Shown here one piece after another: positions 6,792 to 30,520 of a stretch of DNA of 64,000 nt (positions are counted from its first letter, which is position 1; each line of letters opens with the position of its first letter). Source of the stretch: an uncultured Clostridia bacterium (GTDB lineage Bacteria; Bacillota; Clostridia; UBA1381); the NCBI GenBank assembly GCA_934487205.1, contig CAKSRS010000002.1, forward strand, positions 29,116 through 93,115, read 5' to 3'. A program made the position numbers and the translations under genes. Under the pieces are notes generated by a model. The model had not been told where the DNA came from, searched no databases, and was given only the letters and a program-made list of their open reading frames with translations.

Positions 6792-6953
6792 ATGTATAAA
6801 CAAAAACTCGGATTTTCCATGTTTGGATCATATGAACACGGTATGTCAAGCGCCGTTAAGCTCATCAAAGACTGTAAGTTTGACGCGATCTCTCCCGTAT
6901 GGACAAATGATTACAACATAGAAGAAATTGCAAATGTACGAGTTACTTGGTAG
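6792..6953 (+). pseudogene. 5' stub (53 codons) of a gene truncated at the left boundary of repeat module copy A
   Basis: ATG 6792 with an AGAGGTG RBS. It reads MYKQKLGFSMFGSYEHGMSSAVKLIKDCKFDAISPVW.. and stops at the TAG formed inside GGTAGG, exactly where the repeat begins. Identity is uncertain (sugar-phosphate isomerase/TIM-barrel-like N-terminus). Confidence 0.4.
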
Positions 6954-6969
6954 GTGTAACACAATTTTT

Positions 6970-7057
6970 TTATACAAACCAAACAGGCTGCCCGATACGA
7001 GCAGCCTGTTTAGTCCACAAAAATTCCCATAGGTCTTTTTGAGATAATCAACAACAT
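6970..7057 (-). ncRNA. Candidate about 85-nt small RNA driven by P1 and ending at an intrinsic terminator (copy A)
   Basis: The perfect consensus promoter P1 lies 5-7 nt upstream. The transcript would end at hairpin 7011-6981 followed by UUUGGUUUGU. The sequence is identical in all three copies. Confidence 0.4.
6981..7011 (-). terminator. Intrinsic terminator hairpin of the P1 RNA (11-bp stem)
   Basis: AAACAGGCUGC/GCAGCCUGUUU stem followed by a U-rich tail on the minus strand. Copy B carries one substitution, which gives G.U on the minus-strand RNA but A-C on the plus strand. Confidence 0.6.
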
Positions 7058-7061
7058 TTTT

Positions 7062-7090
7062 ATTATACTACTATATGTTGTATTTGTCAA
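7062..7090 (-). promoter_or_regulatory. P1: perfect consensus sigma-A promoter (copy A)
   Basis: Minus strand TTGACA (7090-7085), 17-nt spacer, TATAAT (7067-7062). Conserved in copies B and C. Confidence 0.65.
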
Positions 7091-7197
7091 TAGTTTTTTA
7101 CAAATATATTTCATTATTTTCATTTTTGTTGCAACATAATTACTGCACGTTTGCACATGTGCGATTTGGGGCTTTTGTCTTTTTTCGTAAAAAGGCA

Positions 7198-7226
7198 TTG
7201 ACAAAACTGTAAAACAGGCGTATAAT
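7198..7226 (+). promoter_or_regulatory. P2: perfect consensus sigma-A promoter (copy A)
   Basis: TTGACA (7198-7203), 17-nt spacer, TATAAT (7221-7226). Both hexamers are conserved in copy B although the spacer carries 3 substitutions. Confidence 0.65.
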
Positions 7227-7232
7227 TACAAT

Positions 7233-7376
7233 AGAAAAAGGCAAAACCTCAAACGGTTATGCCAAGAAATCAGTTATTTATGCAATAACCGTCTTGCCAG
7301 AGGCGGTTATTGTGCGTTTATGGGAAATATTATCATTAAGATAATAAATACAAAAAGCGCTATGAGCAGCTTTTTC
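7233..7376 (+). ncRNA. Candidate about 145-nt structured RNA from P2, with an 18-nt hypervariable single-stranded segment (copy A)
   Basis: Hairpin HP1 is 7240-7263, the variable segment is 7265-7282, HP2 is 7283-7312, HP3 is 7328-7346, and a terminator-like hairpin plus U5 is at 7352-7375. Substitutions in HP1 and HP2 between copies are compensatory or wobble only for plus-strand RNA. Confidence 0.45.
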
Positions 7377-7520
7377 GCCATAAGTACAATGCTTACTTTT
7401 CATAAGCATACCCCCTTTCATAGACTCGGCATTTCTGCCTGTGAATATAAAAGTGTGGGCATAACCGCCGGTGTGAACACCGTTAAGAAATCTCGCCTTT
7501 AACATCGGATTACTCCGACA
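7350..7520 (-). ncRNA. Candidate about 170-nt structured RNA from P3 (copy A)
   Basis: Minus-strand hairpins carry GNRA loops. UCGGA-GUAA-UCCGA (7518-7505) has loop GCAA in copy B. GGCA-GAAA-UGCC is at 7439-7428. CGGUG-UUCA-CACCG is also present. It contains an AAAGGGGG Shine-Dalgarno 7 nt before AUG 7403. Confidence 0.4.
7352..7375. terminator. Candidate bidirectional terminator between the convergent P2 and P3 transcripts
   Basis: AAAAAGCGCUAUGAGCAGCUUUUU: an A-tract, a short GC hairpin and a U-tract. The same architecture reads on both strands. Confidence 0.35.
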
Positions 7521-7526
7521 AATCCT

Positions 7527-7555
7527 ATTATACACTATTATACGATGTTTTTCAA
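7527..7555 (-). promoter_or_regulatory. P3: near-consensus sigma-A promoter (copy A)
   Basis: Minus strand TTGAAA (7555-7550), 17-nt spacer, TATAAT (7532-7527). Conserved in copy B. Confidence 0.55.
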
Positions 7556-7633
7556 GAGATTTTGCAGAGAGCAATCAAATTGGTTGATAATGACTTATGC
7601 CCGCGGCGGACATTTTGACAGAATATGATAAAA

Positions 7634-8209
7634 TCACTTCGTTTCAATCAACAATTTTCTTGTCATTCCCGACCATGCTTTTGTAATTTCGTCGGTCAGA
7701 ATGGCATACTCAATACCTTTTTTAACACCTCTGTTATCCCATTCGTCCGTGAGTTCTTTTCGTACTTGAATAGCCTGCAAGCGTTGATTTATCCATTCTC
7801 TTGTATAGCCCTTTTTCAAATATGTCTCAAGAGCTCTGTCTATCGTAAGTTCCGGGTCTATCGTTTCGTCAATTCTCTCGGCACCGACTTGCGCAAGCCA
7901 TTGTTTGAACGGCTCGGCTTTGGGCGATGGAATTGACTGTATAATACGCAAAACGCCTTTTGTGTCCGACGCTTGAATTTTTCTTTTTTTTCCGTCGTGT
8001 GCAATCATTTCAACAGGGGTACAAATTGTACCCCACTTCAAATTCAGTTCAGGATCACGCTGACGCATTTTTTTGATATATTGTTTAACATCTTTGCTGT
8101 CGGTAAGTATTTCAACTATATCATAAATTGAAAAATACCATTCCTCGTGTTCGCTGTCCCACGCAGTACGGATTTTTTTATTTTCGAATATCTGTATATT
8201 ATTTTCCAT
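7634..8209 (-). CDS. Bro-N domain / DinD-like (DNA-damage-inducible protein D family) protein with a non-homologous 3' end
   Basis: 191 aa. Contains IRTAWDSEHEEWYFSIYDIVEILTDS (Bro-N) and KAEPFKQWLAQVG..ILTDEITKAWSGMT. Homology to the second dinD-like fragment (9030-9137) breaks at about 7672, just before module copy A. Confidence 0.7.
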   Translation of the reverse strand: MENNIQIFENKKIRTAWDSEHEEWYFSIYDIVEILTDSKDVKQYIKKMRQRDPELNLKWGTICTPVEMIAHDGKKRKIQASDTKGVLRIIQSIPSPKAEPFKQWLAQVGAERIDETIDPELTIDRALETYLKKGYTREWINQRLQAIQVRKELTDEWDNRGVKKGIEYAILTDEITKAWSGMTRKLLIETK

Positions 8210-8419: not shown

Positions 8420-8977
8420 TTACATCATTTCCATTACAGACGCTATGTTATCGACCAAGAACTGCTGAGCGTCGCGGTCATACACAATAACCGAATATTC
8501 ACGGTCATCTCTTCTGCTGCGCCTTAACTCTGTTGTAATACCGATTTCATTGCCCATTTTGGTAGGTTTTTTTGTTATTTTTCCGTCGGGCATAGTTCCC
8601 ACACACAGCATTTTAACACTGATTAACCAATCTGTGAGATGTTTGTATGAAATCTTTTTCATATTCTTTTCCGCGTTGATTTCATTGATTCTCCGCGCAA
8701 TTTCGCTCATCGTTATAGACGTATCGCAAAAGCGAAACTTTTGAATTTCCTCAAAAGAAATATAAAAATTTTCCTTTGCCGTTTTCTTTTTATTAACCGT
8801 TCCGCCGTTTTCCGCCACCTGTCTTAAAACATCAGATATATAAAATAAACATCTTGAAATTTTAACATTGTTTATAATATCATTTTCCGGGATAATGGTA
8901 TTATCAAGCGGATTAATGCCGTTTGCCAGCTTATCTGTATATATTTTTGCTCTTTGTATCATCTCTAAATCCGTCAT
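8420..8977 (-). CDS. Hypothetical protein (185 aa)
   Basis: GAGGTG RBS and a clean ORF. No family was recognised. It is transcribed from the R1 outward promoter through a dinD fragment. Confidence 0.55.
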   Translation of the reverse strand: MTDLEMIQRAKIYTDKLANGINPLDNTIIPENDIINNVKISRCLFYISDVLRQVAENGGTVNKKKTAKENFYISFEEIQKFRFCDTSITMSEIARRINEINAEKNMKKISYKHLTDWLISVKMLCVGTMPDGKITKKPTKMGNEIGITTELRRSRRDDREYSVIVYDRDAQQFLVDNIASVMEMM

Positions 8978-9029: not shown

Positions 9030-9137
9030 ATATTATCGCGCAAGGTTTCTTTCGTCAACCCTTTTAACGCTTTATACTTGCGTGTTGTCAATTCCCGACC
9101 GTGCTTTTGTACCTTCATCGGTCAGGATAGCATAATT
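9030..9137 (-). pseudogene. DinD-like C-terminal fragment (frameshifted)
   Basis: The reverse strand reads NYAILTDEGTKARSG, then in a shifted frame ELTTRKYKALKGLTKETLRDNISN. This is homologous to YAILTDEITKAWSGMT of 7634..8209 and continues past where that gene breaks off. Confidence 0.5.
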
Positions 9138-9163
9138 TTACCATGCATTTTTGTATATGTCAA
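9135..9163 (-). promoter_or_regulatory. Outward-facing promoter at the R1 end (copy B)
   Basis: Minus strand TTGACA (9163-9158), 17-nt spacer ending in TGG, TAAAAT (9140-9135). It reads into the dinD fragment and the 185-aa gene. Confidence 0.5.
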
Positions 9164-9408
9164 TAAAATAAATGATTTTCGCCATAGGCGTCTATAATAC
9201 CTTGCAACAATTTAAAATGTTTCATCTTCTATAATATGCCGCAAGCTTAAAAAATCAATTTATGATTTTACACCTTTGTCACCCGTAAGGAAACGGTAGG
9301 TAGGACACAATTTTCTTATACAAACCAAACAAGCTGCCCGAATACGAGCAGCCTGTTTAGTCCACAAAAATTCCCATAGGTCTTTTTGAGATAATCAACA
9401 ACATTTTT

Positions 9409-9437
9409 ATTATACTACTATATGTTGTATTTGTCAA
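9409..9437 (-). promoter_or_regulatory. P1 (copy B)
   Basis: TTGACA (9437-9432), 17 nt, TATAAT (9414-9409) on the minus strand. Confidence 0.6.
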
Positions 9438-9544
9438 TGGTTTTTTACAAATATATTTCATTATTTTCATTTTTGTTGCAACGCGATTACTGCATGTTTG
9501 CATATGAGCGATTTGTGGCTTTTGTCCTTTTTCGCAAAAAGGCA

Positions 9545-9573
9545 TTGACAAAACTATGAAACGGGCGTATAAT
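9545..9573 (+). promoter_or_regulatory. P2 (copy B)
   Basis: TTGACA (9545-9550), 17 nt, TATAAT (9568-9573). Confidence 0.6.
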
Positions 9574-9579
9574 TATAAT

Positions 9580-9724
9580 AGAAAAGGGCAAGACCTCAAA
9601 CGGTTATGCCACAACGCAAACTATATTAACAATAGCTGCCTGTGCCAGAGGCGGCTATTGTGCGTTTATGGGAAATATTATCATTAAGATAATAAATACA
9701 AAAAGCGCTATGAGCAGCTTTTTC
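9580..9724 (+). ncRNA. Candidate P2 RNA (copy B), with a different 18-nt variable segment
   Basis: HP1 is 9587-9610, the variable segment is 9612-9629 (CAACGCAAACTATATTAA versus AGAAATCAGTTATTTATG in copy A), and HP2 is 9630-9660. The remainder is identical to copy A. Confidence 0.45.
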
Positions 9725-9868
9725 GCCATAAGTACAATGCTTACTTTTCATAAGCATACCCCCTTTCATAGACTCGGCATTTCTGCCTGTGAATATAAAA
9801 GTGTGGGCATAACCGCCGGTGTGAACACCGTTAAGAAATCTCGCCTTTAACATCGGATTGCTCCGACA
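9698..9868 (-). ncRNA. Candidate P3 RNA (copy B)
   Basis: Same structure as copy A. The first tetraloop is GCAA instead of GUAA, so both are GNRA. Confidence 0.4.
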
Positions 9869-9874
9869 AATCCT

Positions 9875-9903
9875 ATTATACACCATTATACAATGTTTTT
9901 CAA
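9875..9903 (-). promoter_or_regulatory. P3 (copy B)
   Basis: TTGAAA (9903-9898), 17 nt, TATAAT (9880-9875) on the minus strand. Confidence 0.55.
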
Positions 9904-9992
9904 GAGATTTTGCAGCGATCAATCAAATTTGTCGATAATGACTTATGCCCGCGGCGGACATTTTGACAGGATAGCATAATTGCACCCGTTTT

Positions 9993-10304
9993 TTATAATA
10001 GCCATTTATAGTCTTGTCTGCAATCCACAACATAATCGACATAAACTGTGTTATCTTTAATTTGATAAATTAACAAATACCTTTTTGCCGCAAGTTTTTT
10101 TCTATATTTATTTGCAGGAATCTCATCACAGTTAAGCCACGGATAACTTTCAGGCATAAACTCCAAAGCTCTTATTTCGGTAATAATATCCTTATGCAGC
10201 TTTTTAGCAGTTTCAGGTGAAACATTCGCCAAAAATCTGACATGATTTACAAGCATTGATACAGCCTTGTCAGAAACTATAACATTATACTTCTTATCCG
10301 ACAT
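9993..10304 (-). CDS. Type II toxin, RelE/ParE superfamily
   Basis: 103 aa. It overlaps the upstream antitoxin by 11 nt. KYRKKLAAKRYLLIYQIKDNTVYVDYVVDCRQDY is typical of the ParE/RelE fold. Confidence 0.8.
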   Translation of the reverse strand: MSDKKYNVIVSDKAVSMLVNHVRFLANVSPETAKKLHKDIITEIRALEFMPESYPWLNCDEIPANKYRKKLAAKRYLLIYQIKDNTVYVDYVVDCRQDYKWLL

Positions 10305-10572
10305 GACTCACCCCGGACGCTGCATCGCCAAGCATTTTGTCAAGTTCATCAACCGAATACCCTTTTTTGCCCATGAACCTTTCTTCCTCTGCGGCAATAA
10401 GTTCTTCTCTTAATTTAAGCATCTTTTCCCGTCTTGAAAAGCTTTCAATATCCATAACTACCAAATCGCCCTCGCCGTTTTTCGTAAGATACACGGGTTC
10501 CCCTGTTTCTTTGCAGTAGTTGGAAATGTCATTATAATTGTTTCTGATTGCTGCCGACGGTCTGATATTCAT
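10294..10572 (-). CDS. Type II antitoxin, Phd/YefM family
   Basis: The start is taken at ATG 10572 (GAGGAG RBS). MNIRPSAAIRNNYNDISNYCKETGEPVYLTKNGEGDLVVMDIESF is the Phd/YefM N-domain. Confidence 0.8.
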   Translation of the reverse strand: MNIRPSAAIRNNYNDISNYCKETGEPVYLTKNGEGDLVVMDIESFSRREKMLKLREELIAAEEERFMGKKGYSVDELDKMLGDAASGVSHVG

Positions 10573-10627
10573 AAAATCAACTCCTCGCATAAATATTATA
10601 TATTTATTATACATTTTTGTTACTATA

Positions 10628-10656
10628 ATTATACCATTCATATCCGTATATGTCAA
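10628..10656 (-). promoter_or_regulatory. Outward-facing R1 promoter driving phd-relE (copy C)
   Basis: Minus strand TTGACA (10656-10651), 17-nt spacer ending in TGG, TATAAT (10633-10628). Confidence 0.55.
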
Positions 10657-10902
10657 TAATATAGTTGATTTTCGTTACAAGCGTCTATAATACCTTGCGG
10701 CAATTTAAAATGTTTCATCTTCTATAATATGCCGCAAGCTTAAAAAATCAATTTATGATTTTACACCTTTGTCCCCCGTAAGGAAACGGTAGGTAGGGCA
10801 CAATTTTTCTTATACAAACCAAACAGGCTGCCCGAATACGAGCAGCCTGTTTAGTCCACAAAAATTCCCATAGGTCTTTTTGAGATAATCAACAACATTT
10901 TT

Positions 10903-10931
10903 ATTATACTACTATATGTTGTATTTGTCAA
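10903..10931 (-). promoter_or_regulatory. P1 (copy C)
   Basis: TTGACA (10931-10926), 17 nt, TATAAT (10908-10903). The downstream small-RNA sequence and the terminator hairpin at 10821-10852 are intact. Confidence 0.6.
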
Positions 10932-11020
10932 TGGTTTTTTACAAATATATTTCATTATTTTCATTTTTGTTGCAATATAATTACCACGTGTTTGCATTTG
11001 TGCAGTTTGTGGCTTTTGTC

Positions 11021-11512: not shown

Positions 11513-12916
11513 TTACTGCATAACCTGCCAATAGCCCTTCTTATCCGAGCCTATACGGCAGATAATATTCTTCCTTTTGAGAGATTTTATCAATTCACCG
11601 ACGGTTTTTCGGCTTACATCTAATTTTCCGGATAAATCATCATATGTGTAAGCCGGATCTTCCAATAAGAGTGCAATGAGCCGATTTTCAGTTTCAGTCA
11701 CCTTTTCAGTCACCCTACCAGTCACCTTTTCAGTCACCCTACCAGTCACCTTTTCAGTCACCCTACCAGTCACCTTTTCAGTCACCCTATCGGCTGATGT
11801 ACGCACAATTCTATCCTCGGGTGCCGAAAACTTTATCATTATATCCTGCGGGTGAACCGTAAATTCCGGTTGAAAAACGCCATCATTTTTGCATACAGTA
11901 CAGATTTTTTCTATTCCGCGTCCCCAGCTTTCAATAAAGCCAGCAAGATAAAATACGTAAGCTATGTTGGGGTTGAACGGCTGTGATGCATGTTTCTCAA
12001 AAAGATTTTCAACTGTCCAGTTTTCCGGCAAATGACCACAATTTGCAATATACAGTTTATCATTGTAAACGCTTATTTGAATTGGAATCCCCCTTGAATA
12101 ATCCTTATGACAAAGAGCATTCAAAAGTGCTTCACGCAAAGCTTCTTCCGGAACAAAATACCGTTCAATGCGTTGCATACCGACATAGTATATCTTCGCT
12201 TTCATATATTTTAAATAAATAAGCTCAACTATTTTATCAATTTGATCCAATATAGAGCCGTGAATTTCATCTTGATATACAAGGTCTGCATCGGTTTCAA
12301 AAAAACCTATTTTTACATAAGCGCCCAACTGCCATTTTTCCGGATCATTACTGAAAAGCAGCATAGCCGCATTTGTTAAATACCCGTCCTTTACCAAGTG
12401 AAGTTTCTCAAGCATAACAAATTTATCTTCCGATAAAACCGATTTGTTTATTCGTCCTTTGTTAACTGCCCATTGCTTAAATCGCTTAACGACCCCATCG
12501 TCGACATCGTCTGCTGTAAACGTAGGCAATGGCATACTGTCCCAGGTGACTCCCCGCCGTCTCATAATAAAGGTTTCCAGTTCAGGACCGGATAGCTTTT
12601 GATTTGTGCTACCGCTTCTGTAATAGTATGAGCCTTTGCAGGAGATAGCAATAGGGTAAGGTGGCACGTCTATTTCAACGTACTCACAATTGCCGTCGGT
12701 AAGAGAATTTATGTTAACAATAATCCCCATTGCATCACGAATTTTGTTCGGAAGATCTTCAAGCAGTTTTTTCGCATTTTTCACCCCTACAACTTCGCCG
12801 GAATCATTCATACCAATATACAGTTTTCCCCCCTGTGCATTTGCAAATCCACATATCCATGCAAGATAATCGTCTTTCCAGACTTCTTTCCACTCAACAT
12901 TTTGTTTTTCACGCAT
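11513..12916 (-). CDS. AlbA_2 (Schlafen-like divergent AAA) plus HATPase_c_4-type putative transcriptional regulator with a C-terminal wHTH
   Basis: 467 aa. NVEWKEVWKDDYLAWICGFANAQGGKLYIG is an AlbA_2 N-domain. ALREALLNALCHKDYS is the ATPase-like domain. It contains the in-frame repeat (RVTEKVTG)x4. Confidence 0.7.
   Translation of the reverse strand: MREKQNVEWKEVWKDDYLAWICGFANAQGGKLYIGMNDSGEVVGVKNAKKLLEDLPNKIRDAMGIIVNINSLTDGNCEYVEIDVPPYPIAISCKGSYYYRSGSTNQKLSGPELETFIMRRRGVTWDSMPLPTFTADDVDDGVVKRFKQWAVNKGRINKSVLSEDKFVMLEKLHLVKDGYLTNAAMLLFSNDPEKWQLGAYVKIGFFETDADLVYQDEIHGSILDQIDKIVELIYLKYMKAKIYYVGMQRIERYFVPEEALREALLNALCHKDYSRGIPIQISVYNDKLYIANCGHLPENWTVENLFEKHASQPFNPNIAYVFYLAGFIESWGRGIEKICTVCKNDGVFQPEFTVHPQDIMIKFSAPEDRIVRTSADRVTEKVTGRVTEKVTGRVTEKVTGRVTEKVTETENRLIALLLEDPAYTYDDLSGKLDVSRKTVGELIKSLKRKNIICRIGSDKKGYWQVMQ
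11695..11790. repeat. Perfect 24-bp tandem repeat x4 inside the AlbA_2-type gene
   Basis: CAGTCACCTTTTCAGTCACCCTAC at 11695, 11719, 11743 and 11767 (the last unit ends in T). It encodes RVTEKVTG units. Confidence 0.9.
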
Positions 12917-13918: not shown

Positions 13919-14449
13919 TTATACCTCCTCCGGCTTTACAAGCGTTTTCGTTATTTCCATACACTCTTTTGAGGTGTATCCCCACAGCATTGTGCTTAAT
14001 AGATTTATTGCCTGTCTGCGGTAGTTAAAGTACGTCTGCCACGATACATAGTACTGTTTTTGCGCAATCTTGTCCACAATCTGGTCGACGCTTTCTAAAG
14101 GCTTTTCGCACAGGTATGTATAATACAAAACCCAGTACATCATCTCGCCTTTTTGATGTTTTCTGCGGATAATTTCGACCGCACGGTCAATAAGCTGCAG
14201 CATCTTACGGTTACGTTCCATTGTTCGAACCTGTTCCTCAATTTTTGTATTCATCAAATCCGCTCCGGCAGCGTATGACATATCCAAAAATTCTGTCATT
14301 TTACAGCCCGTTTCAAATTCAAAATTGACCTCCGCCTGCATCGCCGATACCTCAATGCTCCACACGACATCGCGGTATTTTTTGAGCAGCAGCTCCGTGT
14401 TGTGATACAAAAATTCGTTGTTTTTCTCGATTGTGCTTTTCTTTTCCAT
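13919..14449 (-). CDS. ArpU/sigma-70 region-4-like small transcriptional regulator (paralog 1)
   Basis: 176 aa. It carries the MYWVLYYTYL motif. Its start overlaps the RepA_N stop by 1 nt. Confidence 0.55.
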   Translation of the reverse strand: MEKKSTIEKNNEFLYHNTELLLKKYRDVVWSIEVSAMQAEVNFEFETGCKMTEFLDMSYAAGADLMNTKIEEQVRTMERNRKMLQLIDRAVEIIRRKHQKGEMMYWVLYYTYLCEKPLESVDQIVDKIAQKQYYVSWQTYFNYRRQAINLLSTMLWGYTSKECMEITKTLVKPEEV

Positions 14450-15387
14450 TAGTTATCGTCCTTTCTGAAATAATTCTTGTTAAATTTTGATTGATAATAG
14501 TGATTCATTGTGTCCGGGGCGTTATACAGCATCGTCAAAATATAGCTTTTGTAATTGCGAATTTTTGTGCTGTTCTCGTCCAGACAGTCGATTACATACA
14601 CGATGTGCATATAATCGAGTTTTAAGAGCTTTCTTTTTACCACCTCCTTTGGCACTTGCATACTGTTGACATTGATTTTATCGTCAAAGCTGCATATTGC
14701 GTCGACTATGATATTTACAAAGCCGTCGATTTTCTCGGCAGCGTATTGCTGAATTAAGATGTCATACTCGATATTGGTTCTGATTACGTCCCTGTATTCC
14801 TCTCTTTCCCTCTCTAAGGCGGCAAATGAAATGCGTGAGGAAGAAGATATATCAGTTTTATTCAAATCTGTATTATTAATATCAGTATTATTAGAGTCGG
14901 ATATGCCGAAGTCAAGAGTTCGGTTTTTCAGAAGTGCAGACTTCGGTTTTTCAGAAGTCAAGACTTCGGCATTTTCGCCTGACTTCGGTTTTTCAGAAGT
15001 CTGGACTTCGGCTGAGTTATCAACACTTTGGATTGAATTTTGATTGTCCGTAAAATTTAAAACATAAATAATAACCGGCTTACCTAAGCCCTGCTTTTTG
15101 CGTTCTATCAAAATCCCGTCCAATTCTTTTAATAACTTCACACCTTTGTCCTTGCCGATTGATAAATAATCCGTGATTTCCTCAAGTGTGAAATATATGT
15201 AAACTCGGTTATCATCATCGACCCAGTTATTGCGAACCGACAAACTCATTCTGTCGAGCATTAAACCGTACAAAACTTTTGCCTCCACTGAAATTCCGGC
15301 ATACCGGCTGTCGGTAAACAATAATTTCGGTATTCGATAAAATGCGAACTGTTCCGATTCACTTTTGTAAAAAAAATTATTTTTCAT
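14449..15387 (-). CDS. RepA_N-family plasmid replication initiator
   Basis: The start is taken at ATG 15387 (GAGGAGG RBS). FYRIPKLLFTDSRYAGISVEAKVLYGLMLDRMSLS..YIYFTLEEI is the RepA_N N-terminal domain. The central linker is repetitive. Confidence 0.8.
   Translation of the reverse strand: MKNNFFYKSESEQFAFYRIPKLLFTDSRYAGISVEAKVLYGLMLDRMSLSVRNNWVDDDNRVYIYFTLEEITDYLSIGKDKGVKLLKELDGILIERKKQGLGKPVIIYVLNFTDNQNSIQSVDNSAEVQTSEKPKSGENAEVLTSEKPKSALLKNRTLDFGISDSNNTDINNTDLNKTDISSSSRISFAALEREREEYRDVIRTNIEYDILIQQYAAEKIDGFVNIIVDAICSFDDKINVNSMQVPKEVVKRKLLKLDYMHIVYVIDCLDENSTKIRNYKSYILTMLYNAPDTMNHYYQSKFNKNYFRKDDN
14908..15016. repeat. Five about 23-bp direct repeats inside repA (candidate iterons / internal origin)
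   Basis: The (A/T/G)GACTTCGG cores recur at 14916, 14939, 14962, 14981 and 15004, with GTTTTTCAGAAGT following three of them. Confidence 0.6.
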
Positions 15388-15413
15388 TGCCCATTCCTCC
15401 TCATTTTTGCACG

Positions 15414-15445
15414 AAAAAAGCAGACACACTTAATTGCATGTCTGC
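15414..15445 (-). terminator. Intrinsic terminator downstream of the cotJC 3' segment
   Basis: Minus strand GCAGACA-ugcaauuaagug-UGUCUGC followed by UUUUUU. Confidence 0.6.
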
Positions 15446-16088: not shown

Positions 16089-16664
16089 ATGGCTTTACAA
16101 AAAGAGGTTGAACCCATTAAGAACACAAGAGATATTAACAAAATCAAGCAGTATTTATACGGAAAAGAAAACAAGAGGGATTACTGTATATTTGTAGTCG
16201 GTATCAATGTCGGATTAAGGGCAGGGGACCTATTATCACTCAAAATAAAGGACATTACAGACGGAAACATAATATTTGATACTGTAACCATTAAAGAACA
16301 GAAAACGGGCAAAACAAGGAATTTTGCATTAAATAAAAACGCTAAGGAGTCAATAAAAATATATCTTAACTCTTTAACGGATTATGACTTTGAAGATTAT
16401 CTTTTTAAAAGCAGAAAAGGCGGTCATTTAGGGGTAAGACCGTTACATCATATAATTAAGACACTTACAAAGGATTTAGGGATTAAGGGTAATTTCGGGA
16501 CACATACATTAAGAAAAACTATGGCTTATCACAGATACATAAATAATGTGCCGTTAGAAACACTCCAAAAGCTCCTCAATCACTCGTCAAGTGCAATTAC
16601 ATTAAGATATATAGGCATTACTCAAAAAGTGATTATAGACTGCTATAATGCAGTAAATTTATGA
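16089..16664 (+). CDS. Small tyrosine site-specific recombinase (phage integrase family)
   Basis: 191 aa. GLRAGDLLSLK, HTLRKTMAYH and LNHSSSAITLRYI match the R..H-x-x-R..Y catalytic boxes. Confidence 0.75.
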   Translation: MALQKEVEPIKNTRDINKIKQYLYGKENKRDYCIFVVGINVGLRAGDLLSLKIKDITDGNIIFDTVTIKEQKTGKTRNFALNKNAKESIKIYLNSLTDYDFEDYLFKSRKGGHLGVRPLHHIIKTLTKDLGIKGNFGTHTLRKTMAYHRYINNVPLETLQKLLNHSSSAITLRYIGITQKVIIDCYNAVNL

Positions 16665-22402: not shown

Positions 22403-22567
22403 ATGGAAAATGAGAAAAGTTTTGACACATTACTAATGACAGGTATTTTAAAGGCACTAAAAGAACGGGAATTATTGACCGAAGAAGAATTAAACGAATG
22501 TATCAGAAAAATAGAGAGTGATGAAGAAAATGTTAAAAGTTGCGGCATATTGCAGAGTATCGACTGA
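22403..22567 (+). CDS. Small helical protein (54 aa) overlapping the recombinase start
   Basis: MENEKSFDTLLMTGILKALKERELLTEEELNECIRKIES... It is below the ORF-track length cutoff. Small ORFs of this type often precede clostridial serine recombinase genes. Confidence 0.35.
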   Translation: MENEKSFDTLLMTGILKALKERELLTEEELNECIRKIESDEENVKSCGILQSID

Positions 22568-24128
22568 CAAGGACGACCAAAAAAATTCCCTTGAAAGCCA
22601 GAAATCATATTTTGAAGAATATATCAATAAAAATTCCGATTGGGAATTTGTTAAAATATATCCCGATGAGGGTATCAGCGGTACAAGCACAAAAAAACGC
22701 AAAGAGTTTAACTGTATGATTAAAGATGCCAAATGCGGAAAAATAGACCTTATTATAACAAAAGAGGTTTCGAGATTTGCAAGAAATACAGTTGATACAC
22801 TCCAATATACACGTGAATTAAAATCATTGGGAATCGGTGTATTATTCATAAATGACAATATAAACACATTAGACAGCGACGGAGAACTGCGTTTGACTAT
22901 AATGGCGAGTATCGCCCAGGAAGAAAGCCGAAAAACTTCCGAACGTGTTAAATGGGGACAAAAAAGACAAATGGAAAAGGGTGTTGTATTCGGTCGTAAT
23001 ATTTTAGGTTATAATTTAAAAAACGGAGTCTTAACAGTAAATGAAGATGAGGCTAAACTTGTACGGCATATATTCAGTAAATACTCAGAAGGCAAAGGAC
23101 TTCATATCATAGCAAAAGAATTAAGAGAAGAAGGTCATAAAACAAAAAACGGTAACAGCGAATGGACAAATAAGTCCATTCGTACCATTTTACAGAATGA
23201 AAAATATGCAGGCGATTTATTGCAGAAAAAAACAATTACACCCGATTATTTAACCCACGAAAAGAAATATAACAGGGGCGAGGAAGAAATGGTTTATATA
23301 AAAGACCACCACGAGCCTATTATAGACAGAGAAACATTTGATTTTGTTCAGGCAGAATTTAAAAGAAAATCGGTAGCATATAAAACCGATAATACCAAAC
23401 ATTCCAACAGATATGCCTTTTCGGGAAAAATCATATGCGGTCATTGCGGCAGAAGATACTCGGCTACATTCAGAAAACGCAAGGACGGAAGTAAACGAAA
23501 GGTATGGAATTGCTATAATAAATTTAAAAACGGTGCCTTGCACGAGGTCAACGGAGAAATTATAGGCTGTGATAATACGGCTGTCGGAAATGATATTTTA
23601 GAATGTGCGGTTTTGCAGGCACTAAATGATATATCAATCAACAAATCTGCAATTACAGATAAAATCACAAAAACAATAAATGAGGTTTTAAGGAATAAGG
23701 AAAAAGAAGAATATAACTTTGAAAAGGCAGAAAAAGCGATTGAGCGATTGGATTCAAAAAAATTAAAGGTCATAGACTCTTATTATGACAACGAAATAAG
23801 CAAGGACGAATTTATTAAGCTGAAAGAACAGTATCAAACCGAGATAGACGAATTAAAGAATAAAATCAAGACTGAACGTGAAAAATCTGTTTCCATTGAA
23901 AATAAAGACGGCTTTATAAATGAAATATGTAAAACCGTAAAACAACTCGTTTCGTTTGAAACCTTTAATGATTCTATTACAAAAGAGATTTTGGATAAGA
24001 TTATAATACACAGCAAATCCGATATAGATGTATATTTGAAAGGCTTTTCGGGGGAACATATTTTTTTTGCGGACGGAAGTAAAATTTTGGATAGTAATTT
24101 CCTATATCAGTTAAAAGGCCCTTACTGA
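22518..24128 (+). CDS. Large serine recombinase (resolvase domain, recombinase domain, zinc ribbon, coiled coil)
   Basis: AAYCRVSTDKDDQ..SLESQ (catalytic Ser), ITKEVSRFARN, and CGHCGRRY..WNCY zinc-ribbon cysteines. The last 8 codons and the stop lie beyond the CCTA junction. Confidence 0.9.
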   Translation: MMKKMLKVAAYCRVSTDKDDQKNSLESQKSYFEEYINKNSDWEFVKIYPDEGISGTSTKKRKEFNCMIKDAKCGKIDLIITKEVSRFARNTVDTLQYTRELKSLGIGVLFINDNINTLDSDGELRLTIMASIAQEESRKTSERVKWGQKRQMEKGVVFGRNILGYNLKNGVLTVNEDEAKLVRHIFSKYSEGKGLHIIAKELREEGHKTKNGNSEWTNKSIRTILQNEKYAGDLLQKKTITPDYLTHEKKYNRGEEEMVYIKDHHEPIIDRETFDFVQAEFKRKSVAYKTDNTKHSNRYAFSGKIICGHCGRRYSATFRKRKDGSKRKVWNCYNKFKNGALHEVNGEIIGCDNTAVGNDILECAVLQALNDISINKSAITDKITKTINEVLRNKEKEEYNFEKAEKAIERLDSKKLKVIDSYYDNEISKDEFIKLKEQYQTEIDELKNKIKTEREKSVSIENKDGFINEICKTVKQLVSFETFNDSITKEILDKIIIHSKSDIDVYLKGFSGEHIFFADGSKILDSNFLYQLKGPY

Positions 24129-25974: not shown

Positions 25975-28900
25975 TTATTTCTCTGCGGTATGCAATTCAT
26001 TTAGCTGCTGTAATAAAAATTTAATATTGGCAATCATTTTTTTACCGTCGCGCACGCGGTATTTAACCGTTGGTTTTCCCTGCGCCGATATAACAATATC
26101 CTTTGAATAATTTTTTATAATAAACTGCACATATTCGGGCATGAAAAGCTTTTCGGAGAACACAAAATCAACCTCGCTGCCATTTTGCACCACATCGGTT
26201 ATGCCGATATTATGCGCCATAGCCTTAATCTGCGCGATTTCCAAAAGATTTCCGACCGACGAGGGCATATCGCCGAAACGGTCAATCAGCTCGTCGGTAA
26301 TTTCCGACGCGTCGTCCTCATTTTCCACCGCAGCGATGCGCTTATAGGTGTCAATCCGCACGCCGTTACTGCGGATATACCGCTCCGGAATAAATGCGTC
26401 CACGCTTAAATCCACCGAAGTGGCAAGTTCCTCCGCCTCCACATCATGCCCCTGGATTTCGCGCACGCTGTCGGCAAGAATCTTGCAGTACATGTCATAA
26501 CCCACCGAATCAATATGTCCGTGCTGTTCCGCGCCGAGAATATCCCCCGCGCCGCGGATTTCCAAATCACGCATGGCAATTTTAAATCCCGACCCGAATT
26601 CGGTAAATTCGCGTATCGCCGACAGCCGTTTTTCCGCCGTTTCCGAAAGCACGCCGTCACGCTTATACGTCAGATACGCATATGCGCTGCGCGACGAACG
26701 CCCCACTCTGCCGCGCAGCTGATAAAGCTGTGCGAGTCCCATTTTGTCGGCATTTTCTATAATAATCGTGTTGGCGTTAGGGATATCAAGCCCCGTTTCG
26801 ATAATGGTTGTGCAGACAAGTATATCTGTTCTGCCGTTCACCATGTCGTACATGATATCCTCCAGTTCGTCCTCCTTCATTTTTCCGTGCCCAACGGCGA
26901 CGTTTGCCTCCGGAATCATCGTCTTTATCCACTCCGCCACGCGGTATATCCTCGAAACTCGATTGTACAGATAAAAAATCTGTCCCCCGCGCGATAATTC
27001 CTTTTTCATCGCGTCGATAAGAATATTCGGGTCGTGTTCCAAAACATATGTCGATACCGGATAGCGGTTTTCGGGCGGTGTTTCCAAAAGACTCATATCG
27101 CGCACCGACACCATCGCCATGTGCAGTGTCCGCGGGATAGGCGTCGCGCTCATGGACAGTACATCGACGTTCTTTTTCAGTTCCTTCAGCCGCTCTTTAT
27201 GCGCAACACCGAACCTCTGTTCTTCATCAATAATCAAAAGTCCCAAATCGCGGAACTCCACGTCCTTGCTCAAAAGCCGATGTGTTCCGATAATAACATC
27301 AATTTCGCCCGTTTTCAGTTTTTTTATGATTTTCTTTTGCTCCGCCGCCGTGCGGAACCGTGAAAGCATTTCCACCTTCACCGGGAAATTTTTCATGCGG
27401 TTTACAAAAGTTTCATGATGCTGCATGGCAAGAATGGTTGTCGGGCAAAGATATGCCACCTGCTTTGAATCCATAACCGCCTTGAACGCGGCACGCAGCG
27501 CAACCTCCGTTTTGCCGTAGCCGACATCGCCGCACAGCAGTCTGTCCATCGGCCGCGCACTCTCCATATCGTGCTTTACTTCCTCAATAGAGCGCAGTTG
27601 GTCGTCCGTTTCGCGGTACGGGAAAGCGTCCTCAAAATCACGCTGCCACGGCGTATCGGCAGAATACTGATACCCCTTCGTATGCTCACGCTCGGCATAA
27701 AGCGCCGCAAGCTGTTTCGCCATATCCCGCGTCGACGCACGCACGCGCTGTTTCGCCTTGTTCCATTCTGTACCGCCCAGCTTGTTTAGCCGCAATTCTT
27801 TATCGGAATTTCCCGAATATTTATACAGCATATCCAGCTGGTCGACAGGAACATAAAGACTGTCGGTGCCGCGGTAGGCAATATGCAGATAATCCTTGGT
27901 GATTCCGCCCACCGTCATCTTCTTTATCCCTAAATATTTGCCTATTCCGTGCGCGCGGTGCACAACGTAATCGCCCGCATTTATATCGGTGTACGCCTTT
28001 ATCCGATTTGCATTTTCCGCCTTTCTGCGCGACTTTTTCTTCGCCGCGTCAAAAATTTCACGGTCGGAAATCAGCACAAATTTGAGCTCCGGATATTCAA
28101 ATCCTTTGCCCGTTTCGCCGCGCATTATTACAATTTCGCCTTTGTCAAACTCGCCGACATCATGCATATATCGGCATTTTATGCCCTTGTCATTGAGCGT
28201 TCCCGCAAGATTTTCCCCGCGCGAACGATTGGACGCAAGCACTATCACCGTTGCGCCGTCTTTTTGACGTTCGGTCAGGTCGCTGTACAGATAATCGATT
28301 TTGCCGTGCAGCGACACCGTCGTTTTGGTGGAAAAGTTAAATATCGCCTTGTAGGTATAAGTTATCGCGGAATGTGTAAGCGAGTTCATCGACACAAGCG
28401 GCAAATTCTGCAATCGCGCGGAAATTTCCGCATACGCCGCCCACATGCCCGCGAAATCGCGCGCTATAAGATTTTTCGCCGCCAAATCCTCTATTATTTC
28501 GCCCTGCTCCCACTCAAAACTTTTCGCACGCTCGGCAATGCGCTTGGGCTCCATCAAAAATATGAGCGAATTTTCATCATAGTAGTCAAGCAGCGTCGGA
28601 ATTTTGTCAAAAATTATACCGATATATTTGCAGATTGACGTCGGAATAATCCCCGATTTTATACTCTCAATGTCATTTTCAATATTTTCGATAACCGCGC
28701 TTTGGTCGGATTTTTTCCGCTTAAGTCTTTTTACCGCCGCCGAAAGTTTTTCGGCAAGCGCGCCCGTATCAACCCCGCACAGCTCACTGCACGGAATCAG
28801 ACGCACCGCCTCCAGCGTATCGACCGAGCGCTGCGTCATTACGTCAAATTCACGGATTGAGTCAATCTGAATATCAAAAAATTCAATTCGCACGGGATTT

Positions 28901-29436
28901 TCCGCCTGCGGCGAAAAAACGTCCAAAATACCGCCGCGCATGGCAAATTGTCCGCGCCCGGAAACCTCGTCCTCGCGGCTGTACCCCATTTTTATAAGCT
29001 TTTCGCAAATTTCCGACGGCTCACATTCACCGTCCTGAACCAAATCAAGCGTGTATTTTTGCATGATTTCCGGCGGAAGGGTAAACTGCAGCAAACTTTC
29101 AAGCGACGCAACCGTGATTTCGTCCGCCGCAAGCGCGGACAGCCGCCGAAATTCGCTGTGGCGGTCGCGCGCGTCTATGTCAAAAAACAGATACTCCTTC
29201 GACGGGAACACCTCCGTGCCCTCGGCAAACAGCCGCAAATCCGACACCAGCTGCGCCGCCTCCATGTCGCTGTATGTGATTACAAGCGTCTTTTTGCCGC
29301 GCGATGTTTCATATATAAAATGCGCCGCCGCAGAGTCTACAACACCGGCAACCGATATCGGCGTTTCGCCGTTTTTAAGAGCAGCACAAAAGCCGGAATA
29401 TTCCGTATATCCCGACAATAAATTCTCAAAATTCAT
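25975..29436 (-). CDS. mfd: Transcription-repair coupling factor Mfd
   Basis: DRLLCGDVGYGKTEVA (Walker A), DEEQRFGV (DEAD/H box) and QLRGRVGRS motifs. The start is taken at ATG 29436. Confidence 0.95.
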   Translation of the reverse strand: MNFENLLSGYTEYSGFCAALKNGETPISVAGVVDSAAAHFIYETSRGKKTLVITYSDMEAAQLVSDLRLFAEGTEVFPSKEYLFFDIDARDRHSEFRRLSALAADEITVASLESLLQFTLPPEIMQKYTLDLVQDGECEPSEICEKLIKMGYSREDEVSGRGQFAMRGGILDVFSPQAENPVRIEFFDIQIDSIREFDVMTQRSVDTLEAVRLIPCSELCGVDTGALAEKLSAAVKRLKRKKSDQSAVIENIENDIESIKSGIIPTSICKYIGIIFDKIPTLLDYYDENSLIFLMEPKRIAERAKSFEWEQGEIIEDLAAKNLIARDFAGMWAAYAEISARLQNLPLVSMNSLTHSAITYTYKAIFNFSTKTTVSLHGKIDYLYSDLTERQKDGATVIVLASNRSRGENLAGTLNDKGIKCRYMHDVGEFDKGEIVIMRGETGKGFEYPELKFVLISDREIFDAAKKKSRRKAENANRIKAYTDINAGDYVVHRAHGIGKYLGIKKMTVGGITKDYLHIAYRGTDSLYVPVDQLDMLYKYSGNSDKELRLNKLGGTEWNKAKQRVRASTRDMAKQLAALYAEREHTKGYQYSADTPWQRDFEDAFPYRETDDQLRSIEEVKHDMESARPMDRLLCGDVGYGKTEVALRAAFKAVMDSKQVAYLCPTTILAMQHHETFVNRMKNFPVKVEMLSRFRTAAEQKKIIKKLKTGEIDVIIGTHRLLSKDVEFRDLGLLIIDEEQRFGVAHKERLKELKKNVDVLSMSATPIPRTLHMAMVSVRDMSLLETPPENRYPVSTYVLEHDPNILIDAMKKELSRGGQIFYLYNRVSRIYRVAEWIKTMIPEANVAVGHGKMKEDELEDIMYDMVNGRTDILVCTTIIETGLDIPNANTIIIENADKMGLAQLYQLRGRVGRSSRSAYAYLTYKRDGVLSETAEKRLSAIREFTEFGSGFKIAMRDLEIRGAGDILGAEQHGHIDSVGYDMYCKILADSVREIQGHDVEAEELATSVDLSVDAFIPERYIRSNGVRIDTYKRIAAVENEDDASEITDELIDRFGDMPSSVGNLLEIAQIKAMAHNIGITDVVQNGSEVDFVFSEKLFMPEYVQFIIKNYSKDIVISAQGKPTVKYRVRDGKKMIANIKFLLQQLNELHTAEK

Positions 29437-29533
29437 AATTCTTCTCCGTTCTGCCGATAATTTAACCTTACACAGCTGCGACATTTTTATGAACATTTCC
29501 GACAAACACCGTCTGCACCGGGAATAGACGGCA

Positions 29534-29615
29534 CATTGCGCTTTTTGGTGCGGCGACGGCGTATATTCATACTCCGAGCCGTGAATACGCGTGAAATGCG
29601 ACGCATATCTTCCGC
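29534..29615. repeat. Diverged single copy of the about 111-bp intergenic repeat family
   Basis: GCGGCGACGGCGTATATTCATACTCCGAGCCGTGAATACGCGTGAAATGCG aligns with the units at 30301-30520. Confidence 0.6.
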
Positions 29616-30189: not shown

Positions 30190-30520
30190 CTCCGTTCCGC
30201 CGCGAAATCCGCGGTATAGTGATGTTTGCCGACCCGTAACGGCTCATGCCGGCACTCTAATTCGTGCGTATGCGTATAATACGCACGCACATTACGTCCA
30301 TTTTATTAGGGCACAACAAGAATCCAAGCAGTTTGCGCTTATGAGCGGCGACGGCGTACGTTGGTACTCCAAGTCATGAATATCCGTGAAACACACCGCA
30401 TATTGCGCCGCTTTTATTAGGACACGCAAGATGCAAGCAGTTTGCGCTTATGAGCGGCGACGGCGTACGTTGGTACTCCAAGTCGTGAATATGCGTAAAA
30501 TGCGCCGCATATTGCGCGTC
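30190..30520. repeat. Three tandem units (two clear about 111-bp units plus one degenerate) of a structured intergenic repeat
   Basis: Units 30301-30411 and 30412-30521 are near-identical, and 30190-30300 is a diverged third unit. Closing stems contain G.U pairs only in the minus-strand (gene-sense) RNA. Confidence 0.75.

Follow-up and report, generated by a model that had tools for sequence, protein, structure and literature searches.

A likely type I toxin–antitoxin module with a variable antisense linker in an uncultured gut Clostridia bacterium

The 64,000-nt stretch analysed here, called the window, lies on contig CAKSRS010000002.1 of an uncultured Clostridia bacterium. A unit of about 670 bp is present twice in the window, at 6955–7625 (copy A) and 9300–9970 (copy B), and the two copies are 93% identical overall. 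Each copy contains two convergent promoters. The plus-strand promoter, P2, precedes a predicted small RNA (P2 RNA) with two hairpins, HP1 and HP2, and a variable linker between them. A first-pass annotation, made from the sequence alone, compared this layout with that of a guide or seed RNA. A 24-codon open reading frame (ORF) on the opposite strand was overlooked in that annotation, and its peptide is considered here as a predicted toxin with P2 RNA as its antitoxin.

Convergent promoters and the 24-codon reading frame

Relatives of the unit were collected from gut Clostridia genomes and metagenomes and from viral contigs, and 25 distinct copies were aligned in addition to a viral subfamily. 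Degenerate DNA patterns derived from the peptide gave eight matches in genomes; four were true (loci L001, L004, L007 and L008) and the others were due to chance. With the same kind of pattern, three of the 35 matches in metagenomes were true (L012, L016 and L042), and nearly all the others came from one unrelated abundant gene sharing 26 nt. In viral contigs no matches were found to the peptide-derived patterns or to a pattern of the 5' untranslated region (5'UTR) of the toxin mRNA. A 17-mer pattern of HP1 detected six true, divergent copies in the IMG/VR viral contigs. Another 20 loci were reached through the protein clusters of an overlapping ORF in a wrong frame, which is described below.

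The P2 promoter agrees with the consensus at 12 of 12 positions in both copies. In copy A it consists of TTGACA (7198–7203), a 17-nt spacer and TATAAT (7221–7226) on the plus strand, and in copy B TTGACA-17-TATAAT is located at 9545..9573 (+). The hexamers are conserved across the family, and the spacer varies freely. The predicted antitoxin RNA of copy A extends over 7233..7322 (+), about 85–90 nt, and is composed of a 5' leader, HP1 (7240..7263), the linker (7264..7282) and HP2 (7283..7312). The corresponding RNA of copy B is predicted at 9580..9670 (+), with HP1 at 9587–9610, the linker at 9611–9629 and HP2 at 9630–9660. HP1 is the 5' hairpin of the antitoxin. HP2 is its 3' hairpin and a probable terminator, and it also holds the stop codon of the toxin ORF (7309–7307, minus strand). 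HP2 together with the UUAUUGUGCGUUUAU that follows it was flagged as terminator-like; the 3' end of P2 RNA may lie at about 7322, with possible read-through to about 7372.

The opposite promoter of copy A is located at 7555..7527 (-) as TTGAAA-17-TATAAT, agrees with the consensus at 11 of 12 positions, converges with P2, and is conserved in the family. Its counterpart in copy B is TTGAAA-17-TATAAT at 9875..9903 (-). The predicted toxin mRNA of copy A covers 7229..7521 (-), about 293 nt. The minus-strand complement of HP1 followed by TTTTTCTATT corresponds to an intrinsic terminator, so that HP1 together with the T-run serves the toxin mRNA as well, and HP2 begins at the stop codon of the ORF. 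The P2 promoter is situated immediately downstream of the toxin terminator, and the stretch of the toxin mRNA made up of its last codons and 3'UTR is fully complementary to P2 RNA.

The toxin ORF of copy A (7307..7381, minus strand) consists of 24 codons and the stop codon TAA, and the product is MAKKLLIALFVFIILMIIFPINAQ. The ORF of copy B (9655..9729, minus strand) encodes the same 24-aa peptide and ends with TAG. The intact ORFs of the family comprise 17 distinct DNA sequences and 13 distinct peptides, every one of 24 codons; in one further copy, L001, the ORF has 23 codons. The peptides follow the pattern M[AV]KK[LI][LI]..., a hydrophobic core and [PST][IV][KN][AV][QE], and the mean Kyte–Doolittle hydropathy of the toxin-like peptide is 1.91. 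The position of the stop codon is fixed in the family, while TAA, TAG and TGA all occur. Pairwise differences at the three codon positions amount to 915, 295 and 1117, respectively. Synonymous changes account for 34% of the differing codons in the ORF frame, versus 10% and 6% in the other two frames. The fixed length, the conservation of the second codon position and the synonymous excess in that frame only indicate that the 24-codon ORF is a real coding sequence.

Two other candidates for coding sequences were rejected, namely the overlapping ORF of 41–75 aa reported by gene callers and a 60-aa ORF of the plus strand. Both show radical substitutions, variable ends and only 6–10% synonymous changes. 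The gene calls at 7278–7574 (-) and 9626–9922 (-) correspond to the overlapping frame, which ranges from 41 to 112 aa across the family (protein clusters P0001–P0046). Its relatives form 32 clusters at 90% identity, none of which is named or matches Pfam, and the exact 75-aa sequence of the window is present in the protein collection. The wrong-frame ORF keeps only the N-terminal AESMKGGMLMKSKHCTYG, because this stretch coincides with the Shine–Dalgarno (SD) sequence, the hairpin and the start region of the RNA. The gene calls are probably spurious, or else the frame is a mok-like leader. This annotation (41–112 aa, 32 protein clusters) can now be corrected where it is spurious.

Codons 3–10 of the toxin ORF (KKLLxAxF; window 7352–7375) form a covarying hairpin, AAAAUUGC...GCAAUUUU or AACUGAU...AUCAGUU, and for most copies the toxin sense gives the more stable form of it. 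Thus, the N-terminus of the peptide and an RNA helix after the start codon are encoded together. The same hairpin, HP3, was considered as a family-wide terminator of the antitoxin and rejected, as the plus-sense form is not conserved and the toxin-sense form has the greater stability.

RNA structures of the two strands and the exchangeable linker

The single-sequence fold of P2 RNA consists of HP1, an unpaired linker and HP2 (z = -5.0), and the family consensus calculated with RNAalifold shows the same three parts. Among 21 distinct copies, 94.7% of the alignment cells at the plus-strand pairs are paired, versus 32–43% in slid controls, and 8 of the 11 HP2 pairs show changes on both sides; the observed values were reached by none of 500 shuffles. 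In each of 23 copies the plus-sense form of HP2 is the more stable one (mean -19.3 versus -14.0 kcal/mol), G.U pairs account for 44 of 320 HP2 pairs in the plus sense versus 3 of 278 in the minus sense, and the whole 95-nt region shows the same preference. HP1 is nearly invariant across the family (entropy 0.04–0.57), and its changes are one-sided only (A-U/G.U and C-G/U.G).

These results bear on several claims of the first-pass annotation. HP1 and HP2 were found in both copies where it had placed them and with the sequences it had given. The fully compensated HP2 pair (A7288-U7307 in copy A, G9635-C9655 in copy B), the two switches between C-G and U.G in HP2 and the A-to-G change in HP1 are also present; the A-to-G change in the compensated HP2 pair is the one that turns the toxin stop codon TAA of copy A into TAG in copy B. 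Its count of 5 matches in the 18 linker positions becomes 6 of 18 on recounting. A plus-strand RNA with two real hairpins is borne out by the strand-specific G.U pairs and the covariation of HP2, and the stability of HP2 in the plus sense and the G.U asymmetry confirm that the strand had been inferred correctly. The annotation had added that only a plus-strand RNA would tolerate the changes, and this is too strong a statement, as the minus strand is a structured RNA as well. In the larger alignment both-sided covariation supports HP2, while HP1 offers one-sided changes only.

The toxin mRNA folds with a z of -7.45, and its 5' and 3' ends are paired. The predicted parts are a 5' hairpin, a ribosome-binding site (RBS; 7411–7418) paired with an upstream anti-SD segment, a hairpin at 7389–7409, the hairpin of codons 3–10 and a long-range helix that locks the 5' end to the 3' end. 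The RNAalifold consensus contains 82 pairs, 11 of which show compensatory changes, and the entropy of the 5'UTR across the family is 0.04–0.5. In the subfamily of the window, the SD sequence (7411–7418) is separated from the ATG of the ORF by 31 nt, and the conserved hairpin (7389–7409) intervenes. The anti-SD helix shows by inspection a compensation from CCCAC...GGGGG to CCCUC...GAGGG (L047 and L061_3001). In the 5'–3' lock, the minus-strand HP1 region pairs with the 5'UTR segments 7488–7500 and 7458–7469 over 25 pairs. In these pairs 98.1% of the cells are paired, versus 34–56% in slid controls; four pairs show double changes, several G.U pairs are specific to the toxin sense, and viral copies add a further compensation (C-G to U.G to U-A). 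HP1 is nearly invariant because it serves both the antitoxin hairpin and the terminator and long-range helices of the toxin mRNA.

The toxin strand forms another hairpin, HP2', between the 3' arm of HP2 and the half of the linker that lies next to HP2. The mean energy of HP2' in the toxin sense, -5.7 kcal/mol, compares with -1.9 for the plus sense and -1.7 for shuffled linkers, and its arms covary (GGTTATT/AATAACT, GCTAT/ATAGT, CGATTA/TAATCG, GGTCAT/ATGATT). A single DNA segment bears the imprint of a coding frame and of RNA structures on each strand.

The linker sequence is AGAAATCAGTTATTTATG in copy A and CAACGCAAACTATATTAA in copy B, 18–19 nt long. Across the family it is mostly 17–21 nt and A-rich in the plus sense. 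Its unpaired probability is about 0.9, and it is unpaired in nearly every predicted fold of the antitoxin. Three parts can be distinguished: a freely varying tail beside HP1, a short stretch in the loop of HP2', and a part next to HP2 that changes along with the HP2 arm. In copy A the tail occupies 7264–7273, and the HP2 loop 7294–7301. The claim that the linker is single-stranded holds for the predicted P2 RNA, and it does not extend to the toxin strand, where the HP2-proximal half covaries with the HP2 arm. The family-wide variability of the linker is about 1.1 bits, the same as that of the HP2 loop and among the highest of the transcribed segments, and the untranscribed promoter spacers vary more (1.6–1.8 bits).

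Three independent close pairs of copies show where the differences accumulate. Between copies A and B, 138 of 139 positions are identical in the toxin 5'UTR, 72 of 72 in the ORF and 23 of 24 in HP1, versus 25 of 31 in HP2 and 7 of 19 in the linker. The differences are clustered in the linker and the HP2 apex (Fisher p = 3e-12). A tandem pair in L052 shows identities of 139/139 in the 5'UTR, 21/34 in HP2 and 11/20 in the linker (clustering p = 1e-11). The copies on the viral contigs L064 and L069 show 13 differences, 9 of them within 14 nt of the linker tail and the HP2 loop (p = 2e-11), and these 14 nt coincide with the predicted unpaired parts of the antitoxin. Variation is thus clustered at the linker in three close pairs, as had been expected by the first-pass annotation, but it is not confined to the linker, since it extends into the upper stem and loop of HP2 and the promoter spacers are more variable.

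The linker segment is not unique to each copy, because alleles of linker plus HP2 recur and recombine independently of the ORF. The allele of copy A is also present in L001, L008 and L053, and that of copy B in L012, L016 and L042. L047 and L007 have a common cassette with unrelated 5' parts, and ORF variants assort independently of the cassettes. The recurrence of the same cassettes in other genomes indicates that the linker and the HP2 apex constitute a recombining, exchangeable allelic cassette.

The viral subfamily (L064, L065 and L067–L070 of IMG/VR) has a shorter 5'UTR and a canonical SD sequence, and HP1 and the 5'–3' lock are kept. GGAGGTG is located 6–7 nt upstream of the ATG of a hydrophobic ORF of 20–24 aa, for example MKKYIIRILILVIVFLLTLTKKVR; MRKYILRIFFLILILLIAFTIKVK and MEQYIIFMILLLLLIISIKK are also among the toxins of this subfamily. 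Partial copies at L044:698-860 and L061:17-166 resemble the viral subfamily. Degenerate copies are found as well: L007 is frameshifted and has lost the SD sequence, and the 5' parts of L042 and L001 are replaced.

The type I reading and its alternatives

According to the definition of T1TAdb, a type I system comprises an mRNA of 150–400 nt, a peptide of 20–60 aa and an antisense RNA of 60–200 nt, and in Gram-positive bacteria the antisense RNA usually lies on the 3' side (PMC8594479). The conserved hydrophobic ORF of 24 aa is within the peptide range. The predicted toxin mRNA of about 293 nt has its own promoter and terminator and a structured 5'UTR, and the antisense RNA, which has its own promoter, is predicted at 85–140 nt. 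The antitoxin promoter is closer to the consensus than the toxin promoter (12/12 versus 11/12). From the two promoters, the conservation of the ORF, the strand-specific structures and the clustered divergence, we consider it likely that P2 RNA is the antisense antitoxin of a type I toxin–antitoxin module with a 24-residue membrane peptide encoded opposite, and that the variable stretch recognizes its own toxin mRNA.

The mechanism may be as follows. The minus-strand promoter would yield an mRNA of about 293 nt, in which the RBS is sequestered by the anti-SD segment and the 5'UTR is paired over about 25 bp with the 3' end, and this mRNA would encode the 24-residue hydrophobic peptide, a putative membrane toxin. 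The P2 promoter would yield the antisense RNA of about 85 nt. The linker and HP2 loop of the antitoxin and the HP2' loop and tail of the toxin 3'UTR are both predicted to be accessible; the linker, and probably the HP2 apical loop too, would nucleate pairing with that loop and tail, so that the linker is proposed as the recognition (toehold) region. HP1 and its loop could provide a further nucleation site. Spreading of the duplex would then lead to RNase III-type decay, to refolding that keeps the RBS closed, or to both, in the manner of SR4 and bsrG; SR4 promotes RNase III-dependent decay of the bsrG mRNA and tightens the SD helix, and it is a precedent for antitoxins overlapping at the 3' end (PMC3834814). 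As both RNAs are read from the same DNA, a change in the linker keeps the cognate pair matched, and the linker and the HP2 apex are free to diverge because the cis-encoded partner changes too. The cassette alleles would probably make co-resident copies blind to each other.

Several points weigh against this reading. The sample is biased, since many loci were found through the spuriously called overlapping ORF. Translation of the peptide is complicated by the SD–ATG gap of 31 nt and by the well-spaced ATG of the 41-codon overlapping frame; the intervening hairpin may bring the SD sequence near the start codon, or else the peptide may be translated through coupling with the overlapping frame, as is the case for hok/mok. 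No known toxin family is matched by the peptide. Only a weak U-tract follows HP2, so that the antitoxin may exceed the predicted length. All five co-resident pairs have differing cassettes, a count that is statistically uninformative given the roughly ten alleles in the sample. The near-invariant HP1, its loop UCAAAC and the HP2 base are the same between copies, and a non-cognate antitoxin could still pair over more than 50 nt; therefore, discrimination, if any, would be kinetic. Every RNA end used here is a predicted one, and we infer transcription, toxicity, RNA binding with its pairing pathway, and cognate specificity.

The first-pass annotation had raised the alternative that P2 RNA acts in trans as a guide or seed RNA, in which the linker programs targets elsewhere (phages, plasmids or host mRNAs), perhaps with a protein encoded elsewhere. 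The conserved scaffold around a variable, predicted single-stranded stretch suits this idea, as do the A-rich linker kept unstructured in nearly all copies and the clustering of variation there. The label "recognition" or "seed-like" is indeed reasonable, because the scaffold hairpins are supported, the linker is unpaired, and the differences are concentrated there in three close pairs. The comparison with crRNA, bridge or omega guides is not supported, however, since every copy has a perfectly complementary target in the predicted convergent transcript of its own locus, which also carries the conserved toxin-like ORF. With three or fewer mismatches allowed, the 64-kb window contains no second match to either 19-mer, and no target in trans was found in it. 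As the annotation had remarked for the window, no nuclease or recombinase gene is attached: across the loci no gene of these kinds, and none of the Cas, TnpB or IS110 type, travels with the module, and the neighbours differ at every related locus, with no effector in common. No repeat–spacer array was found in the window, and no Rfam match was obtained for it. Half of the linker covaries with the HP2 arm on the other strand, which is unexpected for a free guide, and an effector protein is unneeded for an antitoxin. We regard a trans-acting guide as very unlikely. More weight, though still little, is given to the possibility that the variable patch is functionless, that is, a 3'UTR spacer under no constraint and a junction at which diverged alleles have recombined, with hairpins that are only terminators. 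HP1 and HP2 do look like terminators, one per strand, different genomes have cassettes in common, which recombine without regard to the ORF and the 5'UTR, and the untranscribed promoter spacers are even more variable. Recombination of the kind that the annotation named as a possible trivial explanation, a mere breakpoint between two lineages, does occur among the cassettes, but a complementary target exists at the locus and the differences are clustered in unpaired parts, with those between L064 and L069 falling exactly on the unpaired parts of the antitoxin. The length, A-richness, unpaired state and HP2-arm complementarity of the linker are kept across very different sequences, which also argues against a patch free of function.

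The peptide itself might be a small membrane protein that does no harm, or a leader peptide with a regulatory role, with P2 RNA as an ordinary cis-antisense regulator. Its toxicity is a prediction, some copies are situated between housekeeping genes, and the peptide is without the charged C-terminal tail of the Clostridioides difficile and Bacillus toxins (PMC6563280). On the other hand, the mRNA is heavily locked, with a sequestered SD sequence and a 25-bp 5'–3' closure, and the antisense promoter is closer to the consensus than that of the ORF. There are tandem paralogs and pseudogenised copies (the frameshift of L007, the replaced 5' parts of L042 and L001), and the module occurs on mobile elements and viral contigs, beside other toxin–antitoxin and Abi genes. 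A locked mRNA, an antisense promoter closer to the consensus, tandem or pseudogenised copies and such a context are typical of type I toxins, and a harmless peptide is given hardly any chance.

The type I module proposed here was compared with known systems. The system most similar in layout is bsrG/SR4, together with txpA/RatA, of Bacillus subtilis. The promoters are convergent, the toxin mRNA is about 290 nt (about 294 nt for bsrG; PMC3834814), the peptide is small and hydrophobic, complementarity to the antitoxin covers the 3' end of the mRNA together with the last part of the ORF, a helix holds the SD sequence, and the genes are located on prophages or mobile elements. The antitoxin promoter of bsrG/SR4 is the stronger of the two, and here likewise it is closer to the consensus. 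In contrast to these systems, no sequence or profile similarity is found, the peptide is 24 aa versus 38–59 aa, the antitoxin is about 85 nt versus about 180–220 nt, and the whole toxin terminator region is also the partner of the 25-bp 5'–3' lock. Fst/RNAII of the par locus (Enterococcus pAD1) shares with the present module the occurrence in Firmicutes and on mobile elements, convergent transcripts meeting at a terminator, and a small hydrophobic peptide, but the par RNAs share a bidirectional terminator and interact through 5' direct repeats, whereas the start of the antitoxin here lies past the toxin terminator, and the antitoxin includes a hairpin of its own, HP2. In hok/Sok and AapA1/IsoA1, a long-range 5'–3' lock of the mRNA, a sequestered SD sequence and mutually exclusive helices are found as in this module, and the overlapping upstream frame is reminiscent of mok. 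Sok and IsoA, however, act at the 5' side of the mRNA, and the antitoxin here pairs with the 3' end, which is the locking element; for the present family a 3' processing step is not known.

Ibs/Sib of Escherichia coli resembles the module in its very short hydrophobic toxin (18–19 aa for Ibs) and in the presence of several paralogs per genome. It differs in that Sib covers the entire ibs ORF and the translation start, while the overlap here is on the 3' side, and the sequences are unrelated and belong to another phylum. The variable target recognition domains of Sib allow each antitoxin to repress its cognate mRNA only (PMC2943612). The copies analysed here differ mainly in the proposed recognition segments in three close pairs, and comparable specificity of repression may be supposed. 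Loop and single-stranded nucleotides of cis-antisense RNAs such as RNAI/RNAII and CopA/CopT set specificity, and small changes create incompatibility groups. In those systems cognate complementarity is automatic, as both RNAs come from the same DNA, and replication is controlled instead of a toxin. We suggest tentatively, aware that the idea may well fail, that the linker tail and the HP2 apex are an "address" cassette by which the family is divided into specificity groups, in the way that incompatibility is determined by plasmid antisense RNAs. If so, cassette recombination and diversifying selection would let several orthogonal copies coexist in one genome, and a resident copy would be unable to neutralise the addiction module that a mobile element or phage brings in. 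Three overlapping codes would then be present in one segment: the antitoxin fold on the plus strand, the alternative mRNA folds on the minus strand with their G.U/A.C asymmetry, and the end of the toxin ORF. The clustered divergence in the unpaired parts of the antitoxin provides testable natural variants with which the gain of orthogonal specificity by antisense RNAs can be studied, and such variants could also serve as starting parts for synthetic RNA regulators.

Searches of the databases gave no known relative. The whole window has no Rfam match at gathering scores, and at E <= 10 only chance-level matches to miRNA, snoRNA and STnc70 were obtained over 6900–7700. Six toxin peptides have no match in Pfam or NCBIfam at E <= 10, toxin models such as Fst, Ldr, Hok and TxpA included, blastn of the 681-bp module found no match in phage and plasmid collections, and no paper was found for the peptide sequences in the searchable literature. 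Known clostridial type I toxins are 34–59 aa with charged C-termini (PMC6563280), and a toxin of 24 aa is shorter than the ranges of 28–60 aa reported for Bacillus subtilis and C. difficile. The module is judged to be a new family within a familiar class of systems rather than a new type of guide RNA. By Rfam, Pfam and NCBIfam, it appears to be an uncatalogued type I family of uncultured human-gut Clostridia and their phages; most of the curated type I systems come from Proteobacteria, Bacillus, Staphylococcus, Enterococcus and C. difficile.

Genomic context and neighbouring repeats

The first 24 kb of the window form a low-GC island (29–40% GC, versus about 48% beyond), with a step near 24 kb. 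The island contains an integrase fragment (16089–16664), a large serine recombinase (22518–24128) and RepA_N/DUF6017 (14449–15429), in addition to a Rep ORF2/G2P-like protein, an Enc34-type single-stranded DNA-binding protein, a BspA-type leucine-rich repeat protein, Bro-N, a Schlafen/AlbA_2 protein and a ParE/Phd pair. The low-GC part looks like one or more integrated mobile elements beside mfd (25975–29505). The neighbours of the module in the window are Bro-N, an unknown protein and ParE/Phd. Related loci adjoin HicAB, AbiEii, integrases and resolvases, and others are located between housekeeping genes.

The left part of the repeat is a separate unit, present at 6949–7195, 9295–9542 and 10788–11020, and the third copy is without the toxin–antitoxin module. 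All its occurrences among the loci compared are in this window, and the related loci lack it. It carries a perfect minus-strand TTGACA-17-TATAAT promoter (7090..7062), and about 50 nt downstream a strong 11-bp hairpin (about 6975–7005) is followed by GGTTTGTAT. A candidate small RNA of about 90 nt is predicted from the left unit, with a possible 15-codon ORF (MLLIISKRPMGIFVD). This RNA has no significant complementarity to either of the toxin–antitoxin RNAs, and its only Rfam match is weak (STnc70, E = 0.24). The left unit (6949–7195) was rejected as a part of the module, because it is found in the window only, occurs once without the module, and shows no such complementarity.

A direct repeat of 183 bp (9132–9314 and 10625–10807, 91% identical) adjoins the second and third copies of the left unit on their left. 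It contains a TTGACA-17-TAAAAT promoter with a TG extension (9163..9135), which faces the minus-strand gene 8420–8977; in the other copy the promoter faces Phd/ParE (10294–10656 and 9993–10304). The accessory genes of the island thus seem to share a modular upstream region. A tandem array of a 12-nt sequence (CAGTCACCTTTT / CAGTCACCCTAC, about 9–12 copies) at 11671–11813 is located in the 3' part of the ORF 11513–12916 (-), whose product has Schlafen/AlbA_2, HATPase_c_4 and HTH domains. In the core-genome part of the window, a direct repeat of 87 nt is present three times, at 29527–29613, 30322–30408 and 30431–30517, and the copies are 64–92% identical.

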